Origin: Dehalococcoidia bacterium
Lineage (GTDB): Bacteria > Chloroflexota > Dehalococcoidia > Plut-88900
Direction: 5' to 3'
Length of the DNA: 64,000 nucleotides
Assembly: GCA_965207225.1 (NCBI GenBank)
Contig: CBDBLV010000005.1
Span: 640,001-704,000, forward strand
The notes under the pieces were generated by a model, which was given only the letters and a program-made list of their open reading frames with translations, did not search any database and was not told the DNA's origin. Position numbers and translations under genes: made by a program. Positions 21,857 through 61,006 of this stretch are shown in pieces. Position 1 is the first letter of the stretch. Each line of letters starts with the position of its first letter.

Positions 21857-21932
21857 GGGGATGTAGCTCAGTTGGGAGAGCGCCGCGTTCGCAATGCGGA
21901 GGCCGGGGGTTCGAATCCCCCCATCTCCACCA
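21857..21932 (+). tRNA. tRNA-Ala (anticodon CGC)
   Basis: GGGGATG/CATCTCC acceptor with G3:U70; anticodon arm CCGCG-TT-CGC-AA-TGCGG; GGTTCGAATCC; encoded CCA; TTGACC-18-TATATT promoter upstream. Confidence 0.97.
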
Positions 21933-30876: not shown

Positions 30877-32157
30877 ATGACCCCACCCCGCTTCCCCCCC
30901 ACCTCCCGCCCCTGGCCCGACATCCAGGCCGAGATGGCCTCCGCTCACGCTGAGGACAAACCCTGGTACGCACCCCGGCAGTTCAAGGGCGGCAGCTACT
31001 TCGGCGGAGAGGATGTCGTCCAGGTCGCCAACGACGCCTATCAGATGTACATCAACCACAATGCCCTCTTCGCCCCCGACCTCTTCCCCAGCCTCGTCAA
31101 GTACGAACGCGAGCTCCTCGATGCCCTACTCGAAATGCTCTCCGCACCCGACGGCGCAGGCGGCAGCCTCACCTCCGGCGGCACCGAGAGCATCGTCGTC
31201 GCCGTAAAGGCCGCCAGGGCCTGGGCCCGAGACCACAAACCCGACGCCACCGCCCCAGAAATCGTCGTCCCCCGCGCCGCCCATCCCTCCTTCGACAAGG
31301 CCACCCACATCCTCGGCATCAAGACCGTCCGGGTCCCGACCAGCACGGACTTCCACGCCGACCTCCGGGCCATTTCAGACGCCATCAACGAAAACACCAT
31401 CCTCATCGCCGGTTCCGCTCCCTCTTATCCCTACGGCGTCACCGACCCCATCTCCGAAATCGGCGCCCTCGCCCAAAAGCATAACCTCTGGTGCCACGTC
31501 GACGCCTGTCACGGCGGCTATGTACTCCCCTTCGCCCGAAGGCTAGGCTACCCTATCCCCGACTACGACTTCGCCGTCGATGGCGTCACCTCCATTTCCG
31601 TCGACGTTCACAAGCTCGGCTACGCCAACAAGGGCGTCTCCGGCCTCCTGCTCCGTGATGAAGCCCTCGTCGAATACCAGCGCTTCACCTTCGAAGACTG
31701 GCCCTCGGGCCTCTACTCCACCCGCAGCAACACCGGCTCCCGCTCCGGTGGCGGCGTCGCATCCGCCTGGGCCGTCCTCAACTACCTCGGCGAGGAGGGC
31801 TACCTCCGCATTGTTGAAAGAATCCTCGACACCCGGGACCGCTTCATCGACGGTATCAACTCCATCGATGGCCTCCGAGTCTACGGTACGCCCCACGCCT
31901 ACCTCGTAGCCTTCGGCCCCGACCTCCAACACGAGCCCTCAAGAGACCTCGACATCTTCGCCGTCCACGACGGTATGCTCGACAAAGGCTGGAACAGCAA
32001 CCGCATCGTCGACCCCGAAGGCATCCACCTCTTCTTCGACTACTCCCACCACGACATCGCCGAACAATACCTCACCGACCTCGCCCTCGTAACCGCCCAA
32101 ACCCGGTCCGGCAACATCACCCGCCGCCCCACCCAAACCACCTACACCCGCAGCTAG
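30877..32157 (+). CDS. PLP-dependent enzyme, sphingosine-1-phosphate lyase/group II decarboxylase family
   Basis: TSGGTESI, AHPSFDKA, HVDACHGG, SVDVHKLGY. Confidence 0.9.
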   Translation: MTPPRFPPTSRPWPDIQAEMASAHAEDKPWYAPRQFKGGSYFGGEDVVQVANDAYQMYINHNALFAPDLFPSLVKYERELLDALLEMLSAPDGAGGSLTSGGTESIVVAVKAARAWARDHKPDATAPEIVVPRAAHPSFDKATHILGIKTVRVPTSTDFHADLRAISDAINENTILIAGSAPSYPYGVTDPISEIGALAQKHNLWCHVDACHGGYVLPFARRLGYPIPDYDFAVDGVTSISVDVHKLGYANKGVSGLLLRDEALVEYQRFTFEDWPSGLYSTRSNTGSRSGGGVASAWAVLNYLGEEGYLRIVERILDTRDRFIDGINSIDGLRVYGTPHAYLVAFGPDLQHEPSRDLDIFAVHDGMLDKGWNSNRIVDPEGIHLFFDYSHHDIAEQYLTDLALVTAQTRSGNITRRPTQTTYTRS

Positions 32158-32334
32158 CCCCATCCGGTTCCCTTCCCCCCTCGTCATCCCGAGATCCTCT
32201 CCTTCCCGGTGCGGGGCCGCTCACCCTGAGTTCCGTCGAAGAGCCTGCCCCTGCGTAGGCAGGGGGTCGAGCGTGGGGAGGCCCACGCATCTTCAACCCC
32301 TCACATAACTCCACTGACAACTCACGCCCCTCAC

Positions 32335-32400
32335 TGTCATTCCGAACGGCAGTGAGGAATCTGGGGAGGTGCAGTGCAGGTCTCCCAACTCGCCTGGATA
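32335..32400 (+). repeat. REP-like family D (GTCATTCCGA..GAGGAATCT) within a 66-bp direct repeat
   Basis: 60/66 identical to 34562-34627; shorter relatives near 32514, 51373, 56905, 60558, 60637 and 61678. Confidence 0.85.
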
Positions 32401-32413
32401 TGCACCCTTCCGC

Positions 32414-32437
32414 GTAGGGGCGACCGGCGGGTCGCCC
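32414..32437 (+). repeat. GTAG-type REP (GTAGGGGCGACC..GGTCGCCC)
   Basis: GTAG foot plus GC-rich palindrome; relatives near 33908, 33969, 49080 and 51424. Confidence 0.75.
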
Positions 32438-32609
32438 TGGGGGCAGTGGGGGGCGGCCCGCGCATTGCTCAACCATCGCGTTGCCCCACCACGAACCCGC
32501 GCCTCTCCTCTCCCATCCCGATGCCCCGCGAGGAATCTCAAACGCCCCTCCCCCAACCCACCATGATTCTTGCAACTCTCACCTCTTACTGACGTCCCCC
32601 CTTGGTAAA

Positions 32610-32650
32610 GAATTATCAGCAATGCCGCTTGGCGGCATTGCTGATAATTC
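32610..32650. repeat. perfect 19-bp palindrome (module B copy 1)
   Basis: GAATTATCAGCAATGCCGC-TTG-GCGGCATTGCTGATAATTC. Confidence 0.95.
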
Positions 32651-32715
32651 AAATAAAACAGGGCGGGCGGGTGGGACTCCATTTACTCCCGGGACGGCGG
32701 GGGGCACCCCTCCCC

Positions 32716-32829
32716 CAGTACCAAACTAGAGGCCCACACCTGCGCCTTAGCGCAGGTGTGGGCCTCTGTTTTTTCTCCCCCTCTCCCTTACAGGCCCTAA
32801 GGGAGAGGGGGACCAAGGGGGAGAGGGTT
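32716..32829 (+). repeat. family A double-hairpin repeat, copy 1
   Basis: CAGTAC..AACTAGAGGC-[palindrome]-GCCTCTGTT..CCCCCTCTCCCTTA..TAAGGGAGAGGGGGACCAAGGGG. Confidence 0.92.
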
Positions 32830-32936
32830 ACCCGTGAAAGTGCAGCGCCGATTTGCTCCCGGGGCAACCGGGAGGGGGTGAGAGTTCCCCCAGGGGGCCG
32901 GGGGAAAATCCCCCCAAAACTGCCCCCTTTGCCCTA

Positions 32937-32964
32937 TTGACAAATATGCTATAAGTTCTATACT
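32937..32964 (+). promoter_or_regulatory. sigma70-like promoter
   Basis: TTGACA-16-TATACT just upstream of ATG 32979. Confidence 0.6.
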
Positions 32965-32978
32965 AACGTTCAGACCTA

Positions 32979-34061
32979 ATGTCTACACCCAAACTTCACA
33001 ACAAACCATTATCAATAGACCATCACCCCTCCAACGGGGTGCCCGCTCAAGAGGCGGCTGATCCCTCCCCGGGACCCGACCTGGCCCCGGATGCCCGCGG
33101 CCCTGCGCCGCGGAAGAACCCCCGAGGCCCGGCTCCTCAAGGAGCAATCCTCACGACCTCGGATGCCTGCGGCAACCTACCGCAGAAGAAGACCCGCACC
33201 CCCGCCCCTGCACGTCAGGAGCGCAGTCGACGCGGAAGACCGTACCCGCAAAACCGCGATGGGTCCGGTAATGCCGGCCAAGCCGAAGGCTCGTTGCCGC
33301 GTCTGGCCCCCGAGGGCCGGGGCTTCGAGCAGGAGATTTCTCTCCTTCGTTCCATGATCAACCGCCTCTTGAGCAGGCGCCCCCTGAATCACACCTACAT
33401 CTCCCGCTACATGAGACTTCTCATTCAGGCCCAGACCGCCCAGGCCAAAGCCCCCAAAGAACTCACCGACGAACAGGAAGTCGACTCCCTGATCAAGAAG
33501 CACTTCCACAAGGAAGTGGATGATGGCAATACCTCCTACTATGACCTCCTGCCCGTCCGCACCGCCCAACCCGGGGACAAATGGTGGCCGTGGAGGCAGC
33601 TGGTGTCTATTGATGAACGACGCCGGGACGGCCTCATCGATGAAGAGGACTCCACCATGATGGATGCCATGAAAGAGGCCGAGTCCAGCTACTACGGACT
33701 GTCCGACGATGATCCCCCCGACGACACTGACACTTTCGATGATGACCCCGACGACGATGACTATGACCCGGATGACCCGGATTCTTCTTCCAATCCCGAC
33801 AACCAAGACCCCGATGATGAAGACCCCCACCCCGACTACCCGCCCTGCAACCATAACCTGGACGATGACGCCCCGCCCCCCGAAGAAATGGGTCCATCCC
33901 TCTCCCCTGTAGGGGTGCCCCTTGTGGGTACCCTGGACGCCGCCCACGCCGATACCCTCCCCTCCCCCGTAGGGGCGACCGGCCGGTCGCCCGGTTGGGC
34001 CTACCCTTTTCCCAGCCCCTCACCCAAACCCCGCATCGCCAGAGGCCGCCCCCCGCCCTGA
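32979..34061 (+). CDS. hypothetical protein, low-complexity with Asp-rich tract
   Basis: Long ORF behind a promoter; helical-looking core GFEQEISLLRSMINRLL; C-terminus is REP-derived. Confidence 0.6.
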   Translation: MSTPKLHNKPLSIDHHPSNGVPAQEAADPSPGPDLAPDARGPAPRKNPRGPAPQGAILTTSDACGNLPQKKTRTPAPARQERSRRGRPYPQNRDGSGNAGQAEGSLPRLAPEGRGFEQEISLLRSMINRLLSRRPLNHTYISRYMRLLIQAQTAQAKAPKELTDEQEVDSLIKKHFHKEVDDGNTSYYDLLPVRTAQPGDKWWPWRQLVSIDERRRDGLIDEEDSTMMDAMKEAESSYYGLSDDDPPDDTDTFDDDPDDDDYDPDDPDSSSNPDNQDPDDEDPHPDYPPCNHNLDDDAPPPEEMGPSLSPVGVPLVGTLDAAHADTLPSPVGATGRSPGWAYPFPSPSPKPRIARGRPPP

Positions 34062-34123
34062 CCCAAATAACCCGCGCCCTAAAACTGAATACCACAACCC
34101 CCCAGTCTGCCTTGGAGTAAGCA

Positions 34124-34582
34124 TTGAGAAGACCGAGAAGACTGAGAAAATCTAAGGGATACAGAAGACGCCTTGAAGGCCTCGTAGGCAAGCGCACGCG
34201 CTTCACCGCCGTGTTGAGAAGGCGCTACAGTGGCCCCCGCCGCGTCTTGCTGGTAGACGTCCGCAACCCCGAGACCGGCGCCCAGGTCACCGACCACCTC
34301 TGGTTTAACGAAGGAAAGTGGAGCTCTCGCATACGCCCCCGCAACACCATCGCCTTCGACGCCCGCGTCGTCCCCTACCTCAAGGGACGCGGCCCCGCCA
34401 AATTCCTCGACTACAGGCTCGAACGCCCCACCCAGGTCCAGGTCCTCAGCCGCCACCCCTGCTCTCCCCGAAACTCATCCCGCCCAAACCGCAACGCCCG
34501 CAGGCTGCTGATATCCCAACCCTCTCCCCAGTCTGAACCAGAGGCTTTCACCCTCTCCCATTGTCATTCCGAACGGCAGTGA
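34124..34582 (+). CDS. hypothetical basic protein (TDHLWF..FDARV..Y motif)
   Basis: GGAG RBS before TTG; globular beta-rich core resembling small phage-associated hypotheticals (from recall, not searched). Confidence 0.65.
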   Translation: MRRPRRLRKSKGYRRRLEGLVGKRTRFTAVLRRRYSGPRRVLLVDVRNPETGAQVTDHLWFNEGKWSSRIRPRNTIAFDARVVPYLKGRGPAKFLDYRLERPTQVQVLSRHPCSPRNSSRPNRNARRLLISQPSPQSEPEAFTLSHCHSERQ

Positions 34583-34657
34583 GGAATCTGGGGAGGTGAG
34601 GTGCAGGTCTCGCAATTCACCTGGACATTCGGGACAGCAACTCTCCCCTCTCCCCAC

Positions 34658-35061
34658 CAGCACTGAACTAGAGGCCCACGTGCGTGCCTGCATCCACGTG
34701 GGCCGTTATTATTCCCTCCCCTCCCCCAGTACCAAACTAGAGGCAAGCGCCTGCGCCTTGGCGCAGGCGCTTGCCTCTGTTTAACTCTCCCCCTCTCCCT
34801 TACAAGCCCTAAGAGCCTGCCCCGAGTCCCTCGAGGAGGAGAGGGCGACCAAGGGAGTGAGGGTTCCCCGTTGGTTGGCTGTATCCTCGCCAGGAATCCA
34901 TTTCACCCAACAGCCAAGATTCCATCTCGTTCTGTTCCTCTCCCCCCCAGTACCGAACTGGAGGCCCACGTGCGTGCTCTGCACGCACGTGGGCCTCTGT
35001 TCTTCTCTCCCCCTCTCCCTTAAAGGCCCTAAGGGAGAGGGGGACCAAGGGGGAGAGGGTT
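34658..35061 (+). repeat. family A repeats, copies 2-4 (34658-34707 partial, 34727-34865, 34948-35061)
   Basis: Same flanks as copy 1 with different central palindromes. Confidence 0.9.
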
Positions 35062-35167
35062 CCCTTCGTAGTCAAGGCGTATTCTGGGAAGCACCCCCTT
35101 GGCGGACAAGCCATCCCCCACCCCCTATGCTACAATCCCCCAAAACCCTCCCCCGACGGCTCACACC

Positions 35168-35518
35168 ATGCTTTACATACTCCTCGCCACCCTCACGACC
35201 GACGGTCAGCGCAAGCTCATCGACAACCCTGACCTCATCAATCAGGTCGCCAAAGAGATCAACGTTCCCCACGCCAGCCTCCTCTCCCGCTACATGGTTC
35301 TCGGCCGGTACGACTTCGTTCTAATCGCCCAGGCCGACGACCCCGAGTCCGCCGCCCGTCTCTCCCTCGAGTTCGGCCTCCGCGCCGGCGTCCACACCGA
35401 GACCCTCCAGGCCATCAACGTTGACCTCCTCGCCGGCGCCTCCGAAGACGACCTCCTCTCCGCCATCACCGAGACCTTCGCCCCCGCCGACGGCGCTCCC
35501 CCCACCCCCGACACCTAA
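35168..35518 (+). CDS. GYD-domain protein
   Basis: YILLATLTTDG..YMVLGRYDFVLIAQADD..TETL. Confidence 0.85.
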   Translation: MLYILLATLTTDGQRKLIDNPDLINQVAKEINVPHASLLSRYMVLGRYDFVLIAQADDPESAARLSLEFGLRAGVHTETLQAINVDLLAGASEDDLLSAITETFAPADGAPPTPDT

Positions 35519-35534
35519 CAGAAAGGGCCAACCC

Positions 35535-36689
35535 ATGACCACCCTGGACTTCGAAATATCCGAGTTCGAAGACCGCCAGACCAGGACACGCGCCGCCATG
35601 GAAGCGGCCGGCATTGACCTCCTCATCGTCACCCACCCCGTCCACATCCACTGGCTCATCGGCAGCCGTATCAAGGGCTACCAGGAATTCCAGGCCCTCC
35701 TCTTCACCCTCGAACCCTCCGACAACCTCCTCCTGACCCGCTTCGCAGATGTGGTCGAAGCAGCCGACCTCTCCCTCTCCAACGACGTACGCGGCTGGGG
35801 CCGGGACCCCGGCGACGACGCCATCCCCATCCTCAAGTCCATCCTTGAAGAGAAAAGCTACCTCAACCGCAAGATCGGCCTCGAAGTCCCCGACACCTAT
35901 CTCAACGTCCACGACTACCTCCAGCTCCGCGACATCCTCGGTGACTCCCTCGTCTCCGAACTCACTGGCCTCGTCGAGAAGCTCAAGCTCGTCAAGTCTC
36001 CCGCCGAACTCGTCTACATCCGCAAAGCCTCCGACATCAACGACGCCGTCCATCAGACCTGCATCGACACCCTCGCCGCCGGCAAGACCGAGTTCGAAGT
36101 CGTCGCCGATATGCACCGCACCATGATCGCCAACTTCGGCGACTTCACCTCCAGCCCCATGAACTTCGTCAGCGGCGAGCGCACCGTCTACTCCCACGGC
36201 TTCCCCTCCGAGCGAGTCATGCAACATGGCGACCTCGTCCATCACGAATACGGTGCCGCTTACCGGCGCTACACTTGTACCATCGGCCGGGTCCTCTGCA
36301 TCGGCGAACCAACGGCCCGTATGAAAGAGGTCTACCAGGTCGTCCGTGACGCCTGCGACGCCCAGATAGCTGCCATCAAGGACGGCGTAGCCGCCTCCGT
36401 CCCCCACGAAGCCGCTAAGAAAGTCATCGGCGATGCTGGCATGGAGGAAGGCCGGTGGCACACCAGCGGCTACGGCATCGCCCCCAGCTTCCCCCCGAGA
36501 TGGTCCGAGGACATCCAGATGGACGGCACCACCGACGAACCCCTCCGCAGCGGCATGGTCCTCTCCATCGAACCCCCCGTCTTCCTCCCCGAGGAAAAGC
36601 TCGGTGCCCGCATCATCGACAACGTCCTCGTAACAGACACCGGCGCCGAAATCCTCTCCAAAACCTCCCGAGACCTCACCATCGTCTGA
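35535..36689 (+). CDS. M24 family Xaa-Pro peptidase/creatinase-like amidohydrolase
   Basis: VKSPAEL, HTSGYGI, GMVLSIEP, DNVLVT; canonical metal-binding Asp pair not evident. Confidence 0.88.
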   Translation: MTTLDFEISEFEDRQTRTRAAMEAAGIDLLIVTHPVHIHWLIGSRIKGYQEFQALLFTLEPSDNLLLTRFADVVEAADLSLSNDVRGWGRDPGDDAIPILKSILEEKSYLNRKIGLEVPDTYLNVHDYLQLRDILGDSLVSELTGLVEKLKLVKSPAELVYIRKASDINDAVHQTCIDTLAAGKTEFEVVADMHRTMIANFGDFTSSPMNFVSGERTVYSHGFPSERVMQHGDLVHHEYGAAYRRYTCTIGRVLCIGEPTARMKEVYQVVRDACDAQIAAIKDGVAASVPHEAAKKVIGDAGMEEGRWHTSGYGIAPSFPPRWSEDIQMDGTTDEPLRSGMVLSIEPPVFLPEEKLGARIIDNVLVTDTGAEILSKTSRDLTIV

Positions 36690-36698
36690 CCCCCTCCT

Positions 36699-36812
36699 CA
36701 GTACTGAACTAGAGGCCCGCATTGGCGCTCTACGCCAATGCGGGCCTCTGTTCTTATCTCCCCCTCTCCCTTATCGGCCCTAAGGGAGAGGGGGACCAAG
36801 GGGGTGAGGGTT
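36699..36812 (+). repeat. family A repeat, copy 5
   Basis: AGAGGCCCGCATTGGCG-CTCTA-CGCCAATGCGGGCCTCT plus the conserved second hairpin. Confidence 0.92.
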
Positions 36813-36920
36813 TCCCCTGTGGAGTCGTGGGAGCAGCATTCCGAGAGTGTAGGACGGTCCGAACTCCACTTAATCCTGAGGTGCTGGGGGGCGTCGCAGC
36901 TTTCCTTGGACGTAGACCCC

Positions 36921-38027
36921 CTACCCCACCCCCACATCTACCGGGAACTCCCTCACCTCCCCACCCATCCCCGCCACCACCGCTCGACCCGCCGCCACCG
37001 ACGCTGTCCTCGCCATCTCCACGTCAACCTCGAACGCCTCTCCCTCCACCGTGATAGTGTACCGACGCCGGGCAACCGCCGTACCCAGGTACTCCTTCAC
37101 CCTCTCAACCCCGGCTTCCTGCTCCCTCAACGCCTCGTGCGCCTCCTCCAGTGTGACCTTCTGGAAGCGCATCTCGTCACCCGGCATCCTCTGGGCTACC
37201 TTGCCTATGTCTGCGCTTATCACAGTCGCCGGCTTCGTGTAGCCCCCCGACGTCCCCCGGTCCGCCATCAGCACTATCGGCTGCCCGTCCCCCGACACCT
37301 GCACACCCCCAAACGGTATCCCGTCCGATATGATGTCCGGCCCCGATACGTGCTCTATCTTCGGCCCCTGCAACCGGTACCCCATCCTGTCGGACTGTGC
37401 CGACACCGTGAATGCCTCCCCCAGGAGAGTGTCTAGACCTGACTCCGTGAACCTGTCGTCCTGCGGCCCCAGGATCACCCGGATGGGCAGACTGGCGTCA
37501 TACCTCGGCACGAGGCTGCGCGGTATCCGTCTCCCCGACATCCCACCCGACGAGTCCGGCAGGCGCGTAACCAGCATGTCCCCGGCCTTCAGTGCCCGAC
37601 CGTCGAACCCCCCAATCCCCGCCTTCATAAACGTCGACTTGCTCCCCATCACCACCGGCACGTCCAGCCCCCCGGCCACCGCCACGTAGGCCCGTGTCCC
37701 CGACTCCTGCCCCCCGAAGGAAAGCAAGTTCCCCTGCTGCACCGTCGCCGAACCCCACGTCGGAATCGGCGAACCATTGATGCTGGGCGACAGGTCGGCC
37801 CCCGTAACCGCAATCACCGCCGCCGACCTGAACCTCAACCTCGGCCCCGACAGCGTCACTTCCAGGCAAGCCTCTTCTTCCGGATTGCCCACCAGCAGGT
37901 TCGCCAGCCGCAGCGCCACCGGGTCCATCGCCCCCGATACCGGCACCCCGTGCCTCAGATATCCGAACCTTCCCACGTCCTGTACCGTGGTCAGCAGCCC
38001 TGGCTCGATGACCTCGATTACGCCCAT
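36921..38027 (-). CDS. pxpC: 5-oxoprolinase subunit C (AHS2)
   Basis: PGLLTTVQDVGR, SGAMD, SDRMGYRL, TSGGYTK. Confidence 0.92.
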   Translation of the reverse strand: MGVIEVIEPGLLTTVQDVGRFGYLRHGVPVSGAMDPVALRLANLLVGNPEEEACLEVTLSGPRLRFRSAAVIAVTGADLSPSINGSPIPTWGSATVQQGNLLSFGGQESGTRAYVAVAGGLDVPVVMGSKSTFMKAGIGGFDGRALKAGDMLVTRLPDSSGGMSGRRIPRSLVPRYDASLPIRVILGPQDDRFTESGLDTLLGEAFTVSAQSDRMGYRLQGPKIEHVSGPDIISDGIPFGGVQVSGDGQPIVLMADRGTSGGYTKPATVISADIGKVAQRMPGDEMRFQKVTLEEAHEALREQEAGVERVKEYLGTAVARRRYTITVEGEAFEVDVEMARTASVAAGRAVVAGMGGEVREFPVDVGVG

Positions 38028-60335: not shown

Positions 60336-60793
60336 GCCACCAATGGCCGGAATCTGTGCTCCGATAATAGCACAGGCCCCCCGCGCCGAAAACCCCAACT
60401 CCACCTCCAAAGTGACTCTCTCTTCCCTCCCATTCCAATGCCTCCTTAACTGCAGGGATGTCCCTAGTGGGCATCCTCCCCGGCGGACGGGCCACCCACC
60501 CCGAGTTGCGTCGGACCCGTCACCCTTGCCTCCCCTCTCACCCCGACATCCCCCTTCCCATCCCGATGCCCCGCGGGGATCTGCAGCACCCCTCCGTCAC
60601 CCACCTCGTCCCCTGCAATCAGCCACTCGCTTACACGTCATTCCTGCGGAGGCAGAGCCTGCCCCTGCGAAGGCAGGGGAATCCATCCCTCCTAAATGAT
60701 CGCCTGCATCCCGGCAATCCACATCTAACCCCCTCCCCAAACCCACCCTACTCATTGCCACCCTCACACCTACCTGTCTCCTCCCTTGGCAAA

Positions 60794-60828
60794 GACATAT
60801 CAAAAATGCACTGCATTTTTGATATGTC
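60794..60828. repeat. perfect 17-bp palindrome (module B copy 2)
   Basis: GACATATCAAAAATGCA-C-TGCATTTTTGATATGTC. Confidence 0.95.
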
Positions 60829-60901
60829 AATAAAACAGGACGGGCGGGTGGGACCCATAATCATCCCGGGGTGGCGAGGAATTGTGTCCTTTCTTTATCC
60901 C

Positions 60902-61006
60902 CAGTACTGAACTAGAGGCCCACGTGGGTGCAGCGCACCCACGTGGGCCTCTGTTCTTCTTTCCCCCTCTCCCTTATAGGCCCTAAGGGAGAGGAGGACC
61001 AAGGGG
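60902..61006 (+). repeat. family A repeat, copy 6
   Basis: AGAGGCCCACGTGGGTGC-AGC-GCACCCACGTGGGCCTCT plus the second hairpin. Confidence 0.92.

Follow-up and report, generated by a model that had tools for sequence, protein, structure and literature searches.

A 64,000-nt stretch of DNA from a Dehalococcoidia bacterium (GenBank assembly GCA_965207225.1, contig CBDBLV010000005.1, positions 640,001 to 704,000; hereafter the window) carries, mostly between positions 32716 and 36812, a series of short hairpin repeats with constant flanks and a variable stem, called repeat family A in an initial annotation of this DNA. Here the variable hairpin is termed M1, and the conserved second hairpin with a G-rich tail that usually follows it is termed M2. 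The reading favoured by the present analysis, with a probability of roughly 0.55, is that family A is the M1 module of a genus-specific mosaic repeat of the kind known from repetitive extragenic palindromes (REPs) and bacterial interspersed mosaic elements (BIMEs), with a stem kept paired by template switching and a spread mediated by the host. Template switching during replication homogenises the two arms and inverts the loop, a mutation in one arm being either erased or written onto the other. The family would spread through the replication and recombination machinery of its host, with no need for a dedicated transposase, and homology between shared, strand-biased modules (pyrimidine tract, M2 and tail) would guide the pasting of new copies. 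The near-constant bulged T, AGAGG stem base and G-GC stem top may reflect a recognising factor or selection on the proliferating copies. The window corresponds to positions 640001-704000 of contig C5 of a 4.03 Mb genome (G000; 5 contigs, 92% complete). The genus sample comprised nine genomes, six of them single contigs, in an order with only 12 genomes, and included G008, a single-contig relative with about 92% identity to G000 in flanking genes.

In M1, a pyrimidine tract precedes the tag CAGTAC, which is followed by a foot of 4 bp (R-AAC with GTT-Y), a single bulged T, a stem of 18 bp with a loop of 3-4 nt, and a T/C-rich tail. The six copies reported in the initial annotation (at 32716, 34658, 34727, 34948, 36699 and 60902) were all present, the one at 34658 being a decayed partial copy, and the copy at 36699 does start 10 nt past the TGA of an M24 peptidase gene. 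A perfect stem had been ascribed to each full copy; the copy at 34948 opens its stem with a G:T pair. The pattern AGAGGC-N10-40-GCCTCT matched four times in the window against 0.23 expected, a number reached in none of 100 shuffles, and CCCCCTCTCCCTTA, the left arm of M2, matched 14 times with up to two mismatches against 1.3 expected. Folded as single-strand DNA, the repeats gave two adjacent hairpins, M1 and M2, with energies of -40 to -48 kcal/mol (z -9.2 to -11.4). An Rfam scan of the window at gathering scores returned only a T-box leader (1319-1545, 123 bits) and a tRNA gene (21857-21929).

Genome-wide, a scan oriented by the bulged T identified 122 complete M1 copies in G000, of which 104 had a perfect stem, 13 one mismatch and 5 two mismatches. 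These copies carried 70 distinct arms, 52 of them seen once, with an arm length of 18 nt in 108/122 copies. Stem positions 1-5, 15, 17 and 18 were nearly invariant and ten positions (6-14 and 16) were variable. Perfect 18-nt arms, 47 of them distinct, were joined by 69 changes affecting both arms, with only 23 mismatched pairs in the whole set, 15 of G:T type vs 3 of A:C type. The pair just outside AAC/GTT also covaried (G-C in 71 copies, A-T in 38, G-T in 8 and other in 5). The sequence AGTA stood at a fixed place in 106/122 copies, as part of a GTAC or GTAT tag 1 nt from the foot, and truncated or variant copies made up 23 of the 134 tag-plus-stem-base anchors. Formal covariation was measured on 51 copies, five from the window and 46 from G008. 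Both AAC and GTT were invariant in 51/51 copies, with a foot pairing over 4 bp, in agreement with the AAC/GTT base and single bulged T described initially. Pairing was found in 99.3% of 1123 cells vs 80.4% in shuffles, both sides changed in 14/23 pairs, and the covariation score was 0.505 vs 0.156 in shuffled alignments (0/500 shuffles as high; slid controls at most 0.10). The hairpin is thus conserved in structure and variable in sequence, as had been proposed from the window copies, and uncompensated arm mutations are rare (18/122 copies) and leave this description standing.

Part of the variation followed subfamilies in which tag, inner arm, loop length and tail were associated. The three largest were:

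Tag GTAC-CA, inner arm ..CCTGCGC, 4-nt loop, tail GTTT: 19 copies
Tag GTAC-TG, inner arm ..TGGGTGC, 3-nt loop, tail GTTC: 16 copies
Tag GTAT-TG, inner arm ..TTGGCGC, 4-nt loop, tail GTTC: 8 copies

Outer-arm variants were common to several subfamilies, which suggests exchange between copies. M1 was usually followed by M2 and its G-rich tail, and a further hairpin module came after M1 in 32/122 copies. The variable but paired stem has two sources, namely the three main subfamilies with their recombinant arms and the copying of one arm from the other within a DNA palindrome.

The copying of arms was examined at orthologous sites by comparing with G000 40 regions of 20 kb picked by copy positions in G008 (800 kb, about a quarter of that genome). 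Unique collinear outer flanks were present in G000 for 26/82 G008 copies, one of which, an unrelated hairpin admitted by a relaxed scan, was dropped. Among the remaining 25 sites, M1 was missing in G000 at 10, belonged to a different arm class at 7 and had the same arm at 8. At these eight same-arm sites the loop was identical in four, exactly inverted in two (CTTG/CAAG and CCTG/CAGG), inverted with one further change in one and altered by a single change in one; one same-arm site also showed two compensated stem-pair changes between G008 and G000. A looser screen based on 600-nt flanks, in which the sizes of some gaps are wrong, added a GTT/AAC flip and one compensated pair change. Within G000, copies of the same arm class and orientation carried loops that were reverse complements of each other (AAC in 5 and GTT in 5, AGAA in 3 and TTCT in 3, AGA in 3 and TCT in 3, TGAA in 3 and TTCA in 5, CAAG in 3 and CTTG in 5). 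A few copies had a “repaired” bulge, in which an A stood inserted opposite the T or the T itself was gone, as arm homogenisation predicts. Multi-base compensatory changes and loop inversions are ascribed to template switching in an excerpt of one study (PMC8794818), and arm homogenisation with spacer inversion is described for inverted repeats in an excerpt of another (PMC8604942). The combination of homogenisation, compensatory changes and loop inversion matches this published footprint, and the initial proposal that one arm is copied from the other is thereby supported. Such copying belongs to the DNA palindrome itself, and no special enzyme is required.

The family has a narrow taxonomic range. 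A strict sequence pattern matched in 9/9 genomes of the genus, with 1 to 90 matches each and none for a reversed control pattern, and had no match in 32 other genomes (three other genera of the family and 29 other families of the class). With a covariance model derived from those 51 copies and 150 candidates scored per genome, there were at least 150 matches in G000, 149 in G008, 139 in G007, 122 in G001, 79 in G006, 64 in G002, 42 in G003, 18 in G005 and 8 in G004, and none in three sister genera. Among the genomes searched, the M1 family is restricted to one genus of Dehalococcoidia.

The initial annotation had envisaged a recombinase or HUH enzyme, encoded elsewhere, acting on the repeat. 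No Y1/REP-associated tyrosine transposase (RAYT) gene (PF01797) was found in any of the nine genomes of the genus, in a search to which control genomes responded. For the integron integrase (TIGR02249), the best scores on whole proteins of the 92% complete G000 genome fell short of the cut-off of 265, at 115-122 bits; the search recovered no tyrosine recombinases other than XerD (346.6 vs a XerD cut-off of 329.6) and a XerC-like protein (326.6 vs 335.15). The TnpB domain (PF07282) was counted in 2/9 genomes, scoring above cut-off only in G005, and a reverse transcriptase (RVT_1) was present in 3/9 genomes (G000, G008 and G004) and absent from G001 and G007, which hold 122 and 139 M1 copies. 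No enzyme tracking the M1 family was thus recovered through PF01797, TIGR02249, RVT_1 or PF07282, a search that did not extend to GIY-YIG, DUF559, IS110 and IS91, and the proposed enzyme found no support. The reverse transcriptase genes of G000 are four in number (C2:158087, C5:1548409, C5:1553608-1554405 and C5:1671488-1672288), with frames of 586-652 aa; two have identical scores, and they are lacking in most relatives.

The arrangement of the copies and of the features around them in the window is as follows.

30877-32157: gene for a PLP-dependent decarboxylase (Pfam)
32716-32775, plus strand: M1 copy 1, with tag CAGTAC at 32716-32721, foot AAAC at 32723-32726 and bulged T at 32727
32728-32767, plus strand: stem of M1 copy 1, 18 bp with loop CTTA, followed by GTTTTTT
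32777-32831, plus strand: M2 copy 1, hairpin CCCCCTCTCCCTTA / TAAGGGAGAGGGGG (32777-32811) with G-rich tail ACCAAGGGGGAGAGGGTT
32893-32964, plus strand: P hairpin GGGGGCCGGGGG-AAAAT-CCCCCCAAAA and promoter of unit X, with sigma-70-like TTGACA-16-TATACT at 32937-32964
32979-34061, plus strand: 360-aa open reading frame (ORF) of the multicopy unit X, without a Pfam family
34658-34714, plus strand: decayed partial M1 with tag CAGCAC and a broken or truncated right arm, missing at the orthologous place in G008
34727-34785, plus strand: M1 copy with stem at 34739-34778 and loop CTTG, arm and loop identical in the G008 orthologue
34789-34868, plus strand: long-loop variant of M2 with a nested hairpin CCCCGAG..CTCGAGG, partly decayed
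34948-35006, plus strand: M1 copy with loop TCT and a G:T first stem pair, the corresponding place in G008 holding a solo M2
35009-35062, plus strand: M2 and tail of the copy at 34948
35168-36689, plus strand: two ordinary genes, for a GYD-domain protein (35168-35518) and an M24 peptidase (35535-36689)
36699-36757, plus strand: M1 copy with stem at 36711-36749, missing at the orthologous place in G007, G001, G008 and G002
36760-36813, plus strand: M2 and tail of the copy at 36699
60902-60997, plus strand: M1 (stem 60914-60952, loop AGC) and M2, followed by a promoter-driven multicopy unit
Opposite strand, near the copies: gene for a carboxyltransferase (CT_A_B; Pfam)

Between sister species, turnover of copies by gain, loss and overwriting is rapid. 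Relative G007 lacks the entire block 32158-35117 (repeat modules, unit X and a 152-aa ORF), its decarboxylase and GYD genes being separated by a spacer of 60 bp; G008 has the block, and a diverged form of it is found in G001. The place of the copy at 36699 holds other small hairpin repeats in G007 and G001 and an inserted gene in G008 and G002. Reading five gains or losses by eye placed their boundaries in shared modules (the pyrimidine tract, M2 and the tail GGGGGTGAGGGTTCC), and no fixed-length target duplication, exact ends or fixed target were seen in these five. This indicates that the intergenic DNA of the genus is a fast-turning mosaic, as in BIMEs. At the place of the copy at 36699, immediately downstream of the M24 peptidase gene, G008 (L020:3440-4660) and G002 (L023:3070 onward) have a gene of about 400 aa that is lower in GC and contains a nuclease-like motif. 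In G007 (L021:880-1080, minus strand) about 190 bp of another repeat type separate the GYD and peptidase genes, a gap of 16 bp in G000. In short-read contigs from four DNA runs, the repeats caused breaks and collapse, depth heaped on M1 and M2, and many joints came from other copies. At 34978, where the loop of the copy at 34948 has its first base, a T>A variant was inseparable from cross-mapping of other copies, and none of these contig data were used as evidence.

The initial annotation had also suggested that the copies punctuate gene cassettes. The genes between them proved to be of two kinds: the GYD-peptidase pair and the genes next to it keep their synteny in each of the five relatives examined, and the interval from 32716 to 34658 varies among relatives. 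The latter had been taken for a cassette; it is indeed variable, but contains, in place of a promoterless cassette, a multicopy unit driven by its own promoter. This unit X (32873-34061) comprises the promoter and a 360-aa ORF rich in Pro and Asp, which on present evidence is not an enzyme candidate. It is found in 6-11 copies in G000 and in several in relatives, mostly directly preceded by M1-M2, and one G000/G008 rearrangement breakpoint lies at unit X. Genome-wide, M1 copies are scattered over every contig, on either strand, at a median distance of 15.9 kb from one another. The M1 family is not an integron-like gene-cassette system. Background on attC sites is useful here: their R'' box reads RYYYAAC and their R' box GTTRRRY, the two being complementary over 7 bp. 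M1 resembles an attC site in being defined by structure, with a variable but paired centre, an invariant AAC...GTT base, an extrahelical base and one strand that apparently matters, and the presence of five same-orientation copies in 4.1 kb together with the absence of the block 32158-35117 from G007 would also suit attC-like sites of an integron or of an array of the CALIN type (clusters of attC sites lacking an integron integrase). However, GTT is followed in M1 by YTTY, pyrimidines in place of RRRY, and only 4 bp pair (R-AAC with GTT-Y); M1 has one bulge, whereas attC has two or three and an unpaired central spacer; neither IntI (115-122 bits against 265, as given above, next to Xer-type recombinases only) nor attI nor an array accompanies the copies, which are dispersed; and the genes that they flank are ordinary syntenic ones, such as the GYD-M24 pair fixed in 5/5 relatives, or units with their own promoter. 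An attC identity is accordingly given almost no credence.

The most striking regularity of the family is its orientation. Neighbouring copies at most 6 kb apart had the same orientation in 43 cases and the opposite one in a single case, and orientation blocks in G000 extended up to 600 kb. GC skew in this genome is ±0.1 to 0.25 over 20-40 kb and occurs in blocks of 50-600 kb, with many changes of sign along each contig; the window (1-64000) lies inside a negative-skew block, and G008 shows the same block pattern. The skew is independent of gene strand, as third codon positions in one block were C 54% and G 23% in plus-strand genes and C 31% and G 46% in minus-strand genes. The G-rich and C-rich strands carried 20 vs 19 tRNA genes and 1037 vs 1028 of all predicted genes. 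In G000, the tagged strand of M1 was the C-rich strand in 106/106 copies when skew was measured over ±5 kb, in 114/114 over ±2.5 kb and in 92/97 over ±20 kb, and in 102/109 by the GC3 skew of neighbouring genes. In G008, 81/81 copies were on the C-rich strand, and changes of orientation lay a few kb at most from changes of skew. If the usual rule applies, the C-rich strand would carry the lagging-strand sequence.

Other small repeats showed the same placement. A second hairpin family, GTCATTCC..GGAATC, with 146 pattern matches in G000, was on the C-rich strand in 117/121 cases, the motif CCTGAG..GTCGAAG in 24/24, the M2 tail in 93/98 and an AT-rich hairpin family in all 14 scorable matches of the 19 in G000. 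In the GTCATTCC-(variable stem-loop)-GGAATC family, found in the window at 32333-32372, 34563-34600 and 32515-32545, the outer stem is constant and the inner stem variable. The AT-rich hairpin has a variable stem followed by the conserved AAAAC.GG.CGGGCGGGTGGGAC and occurs in the window at 32610-32690 and 60790-60860, upstream of some M1 copies. In masked intergenic DNA, C-rich 7-8-mers were 4 to 6.5 times commoner on the C-rich strand; a target-tract bias of this size predicts about 80-87% polarity, so that target composition explains only part of the polarity observed. Survivorship as its cause was rejected by argument, as the element has approximately equal G and C and its copies are young.

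This polarity is where the main rival to host-mediated, homology-guided pasting draws its strength. It would make M1 a mobile single-stranded DNA (ssDNA) element recognised by its structure, with a non-Y1 enzyme acting at the replication fork and inserting the folded hairpin into only one of the two template strands. An orientation bias of 106/106 and 81/81 exceeds what a 4-6.5-fold tract bias would give, and the constancy of the tag (AGTA in 106/122 copies), the bulged T and the invariant stem positions speaks for such an element, as does tolerance of G:T pairs on one strand. A copy number ranging from 8 to at least 150 within the genus and the presence or absence of copies at orthologous sites also fit a mobile element. 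A replication-coupled strand bias is reported for IS200/IS605 elements in an excerpt of PMC6006769. M1 shares with the ends of IS200/IS605 and their miniature derivatives a subterminal hairpin in which a T is left unpaired, a short motif 5' of the foot that resembles a guide, and an orientation tied to the replication strand; unlike them, it lives in a genus without TnpA (Y1) and with TnpB in only 2/9 genomes, has no left-end/right-end pair and showed no fixed tetranucleotide target. The single-strand recognition proposed initially thus fares unevenly: the preponderance of G:T (15) over A:C (3) mismatches suggests that one strand matters when folded, but an attC-like or HUH system as its agent is not supported. 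Further against an ssDNA element, no candidate enzyme emerged (Y1 in 0/9 genomes, TnpB and reverse transcriptase patchy, only XerD and a XerC-like protein otherwise), the five gains and losses lacked exact ends or a fixed target and had their boundaries in shared modules, and at least four unrelated small repeat families are equally polar, which would call for one very general process or for several enzymes. We therefore favour host-mediated, homology-guided pasting and regard a fork-coupled single-strand mechanism with an enzyme of its own as rather unlikely. In a broader version, tentative and somewhat improbable, M1 and the hairpin repeats of like polarity would all be substrates of an undescribed replication-coupled, structure-recognising ssDNA mobilisation system, neither Y1 HUH nor integron integrase, with the bulged T and the GTAC tag as its marks and one-strand placement as its footprint.

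A role in transcription was considered as a further explanation of the paired stem. In G000, 121/122 M1 copies lay outside predicted genes, and their spacers were tandem sense in 42 cases, tandem antisense in 15, divergent in 42 and convergent in 22 (counts that depend on our own crude gene caller). M1 was flagged as terminator-like on the sense strand, the scan flagging three window copies, and at least 6 of the first 8 nt after the stem were T in 40/122 copies, with 5 T in 70. A consensus-like promoter was found 110-210 nt downstream on the same strand in 23/122 copies and on the other strand in none; these promoters belong to multicopy units, of which unit X is one class. Another multicopy unit, in which no ORF is consistently found, has promoters of two further classes (8 and 11 copies) and occurs at 19 or more places in G000; in the window it extends from about 61040, and its transcript would start near AAGGAGGAACC. 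Judged from sequence features, the hairpin and U-rich tail of a sense transcript of M1 probably serve to terminate transcription or to insulate, for example before mobile promoters. In a rival explanation, M1 would be a functional RNA element (an intrinsic terminator/insulator or an mRNA-stabilising 3' hairpin) whose pairing is selected and which spread through its usefulness. The GC-rich stem with its T-rich tail, the sense-strand terminator flag, the predominance of G:U-type mismatches, the excess of tandem sense (42) over tandem antisense (15) spacers and the position of copies upstream of promoters are consistent with it. However, orientation tracks the compositional strand and not the genes, the upstream gene being co-oriented in only 64/121 copies, and 42 copies lie in divergent spacers; one mismatch would barely harm an 18-bp stem, so that selection alone fails to explain 85% perfect copies with 70 arms; and loop flips and repaired bulges are events at the level of DNA. 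We consider selection on RNA as the origin of the family distinctly unlikely.

The closest known relatives in kind are REPs, BIMEs and REPINs. Like these, M1 is a short GC-rich extragenic palindrome with at least 100 copies and a conserved tetranucleotide just 5' of the foot; it occurs as several subtypes per genome, forms mosaics with other motifs, is restricted to a species or genus and is often terminator-like. It differs in its strongly variable stem with full compensation, in the strict polarity with respect to the skew strand and in the frequency of divergent, promoter-side spacers. Its tag is GTAC, while the tetranucleotide of REPs is GT[AG]G, 0-2 nt 5' of the foot, according to an excerpt of PMC6006769; the genus is without RAYT (0/9), and copies are not arranged as head-to-head pairs. 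On the features tested, M1 is not a member of the REP/RAYT family. That it is a REP/REPIN family of the classical type, its RAYT having been lost or overlooked and its copies being decaying relics, might be argued from its nature as a short extragenic palindrome, from a GTAC 1 nt from the foot that comes near the GT[AG]G rule (as stated in excerpts of PMC6006769 and PMC3733652) and from its high copy number and subfamilies. Such a relic is very improbable, as Y1 genes are lacking in nine genomes, six of them single contigs, neighbouring copies are not inverted pairs (43 same vs 1 opposite), and there is no sign of decay: 85-88% of copies are perfect and turnover is quick between species about 92% identical, whereas REPIN populations without a RAYT decay, at least in the part of a preprint consulted (bioRxiv 10.1101/2021.07.10.451892). 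As regards the features of a miniature inverted-repeat transposable element (MITE), the two ends of M1+M2 are not inverted copies of one another; similar pyrimidine tracts flank M1 on either side and may be a duplication or simply the target. The possibility that the family matches a described REP or MITE, raised at the outset, gained nothing from Rfam or the literature, ISfinder and Dfam not being among the resources compared. Rfam yielded no family at gathering score, and a permissive scan of 32500-37000 only sub-threshold, chance-like matches to microRNA and viral stem-loop families; no paper describing the M1 repeat family was found in the literature searched. With quasipalindrome correction by template switching, M1 has in common arm homogenisation, multi-base compensation, exact loop inversion and bulge repair. 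Template switching is, however, a mutational process, which explains the upkeep of the M1 stem and not its dispersal, constant flanks or polarity.

Several observations weigh against a host-mediated mosaic repeat maintained by template switching. The bulged T and the invariant stem positions have been retained even though homogenisation would be expected to wear down such asymmetry, which argues for a specific recognising protein. The ratio of 15 G:T to 3 A:C mismatches fits selection on one folded strand, RNA or ssDNA, and is not predicted by blind template switching. The bias in target tracts is too weak on its own, and a further strand-specific step would be needed, for instance the joint use of several modules or ssDNA at the fork. 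Spread by the host is deduced indirectly, no clean donor/recipient pair having been found in the 800 kb, about a quarter, of G008. The gene context (42 divergent and 22 convergent spacers, from a crude gene caller) is unlike that of a terminator family, and the range in copy number (8 to at least 150) is to be read against the 150 candidates scored per genome.

The M1 family constitutes a natural record, with more than 100 copies per genome across nine related genomes, of how template switching preserves long, perfect hairpins. Where covariation is strong, selection on RNA structure is the usual interpretation; M1 shows that the mechanics of DNA alone suffice, which calls for caution in RNA-motif discovery. 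It is also a REP-like family that thrives without a RAYT, with near-absolute polarity in a genome with a very large, gene-independent GC skew. Candidates for the cause of this polarity are fork-coupled insertion, homology-guided pasting and an enzyme. The mosaic repeats and the multicopy promoter units are found where rearrangements between species have their breakpoints, and together they are probably what drives the scrambling of genome architecture in this lineage.

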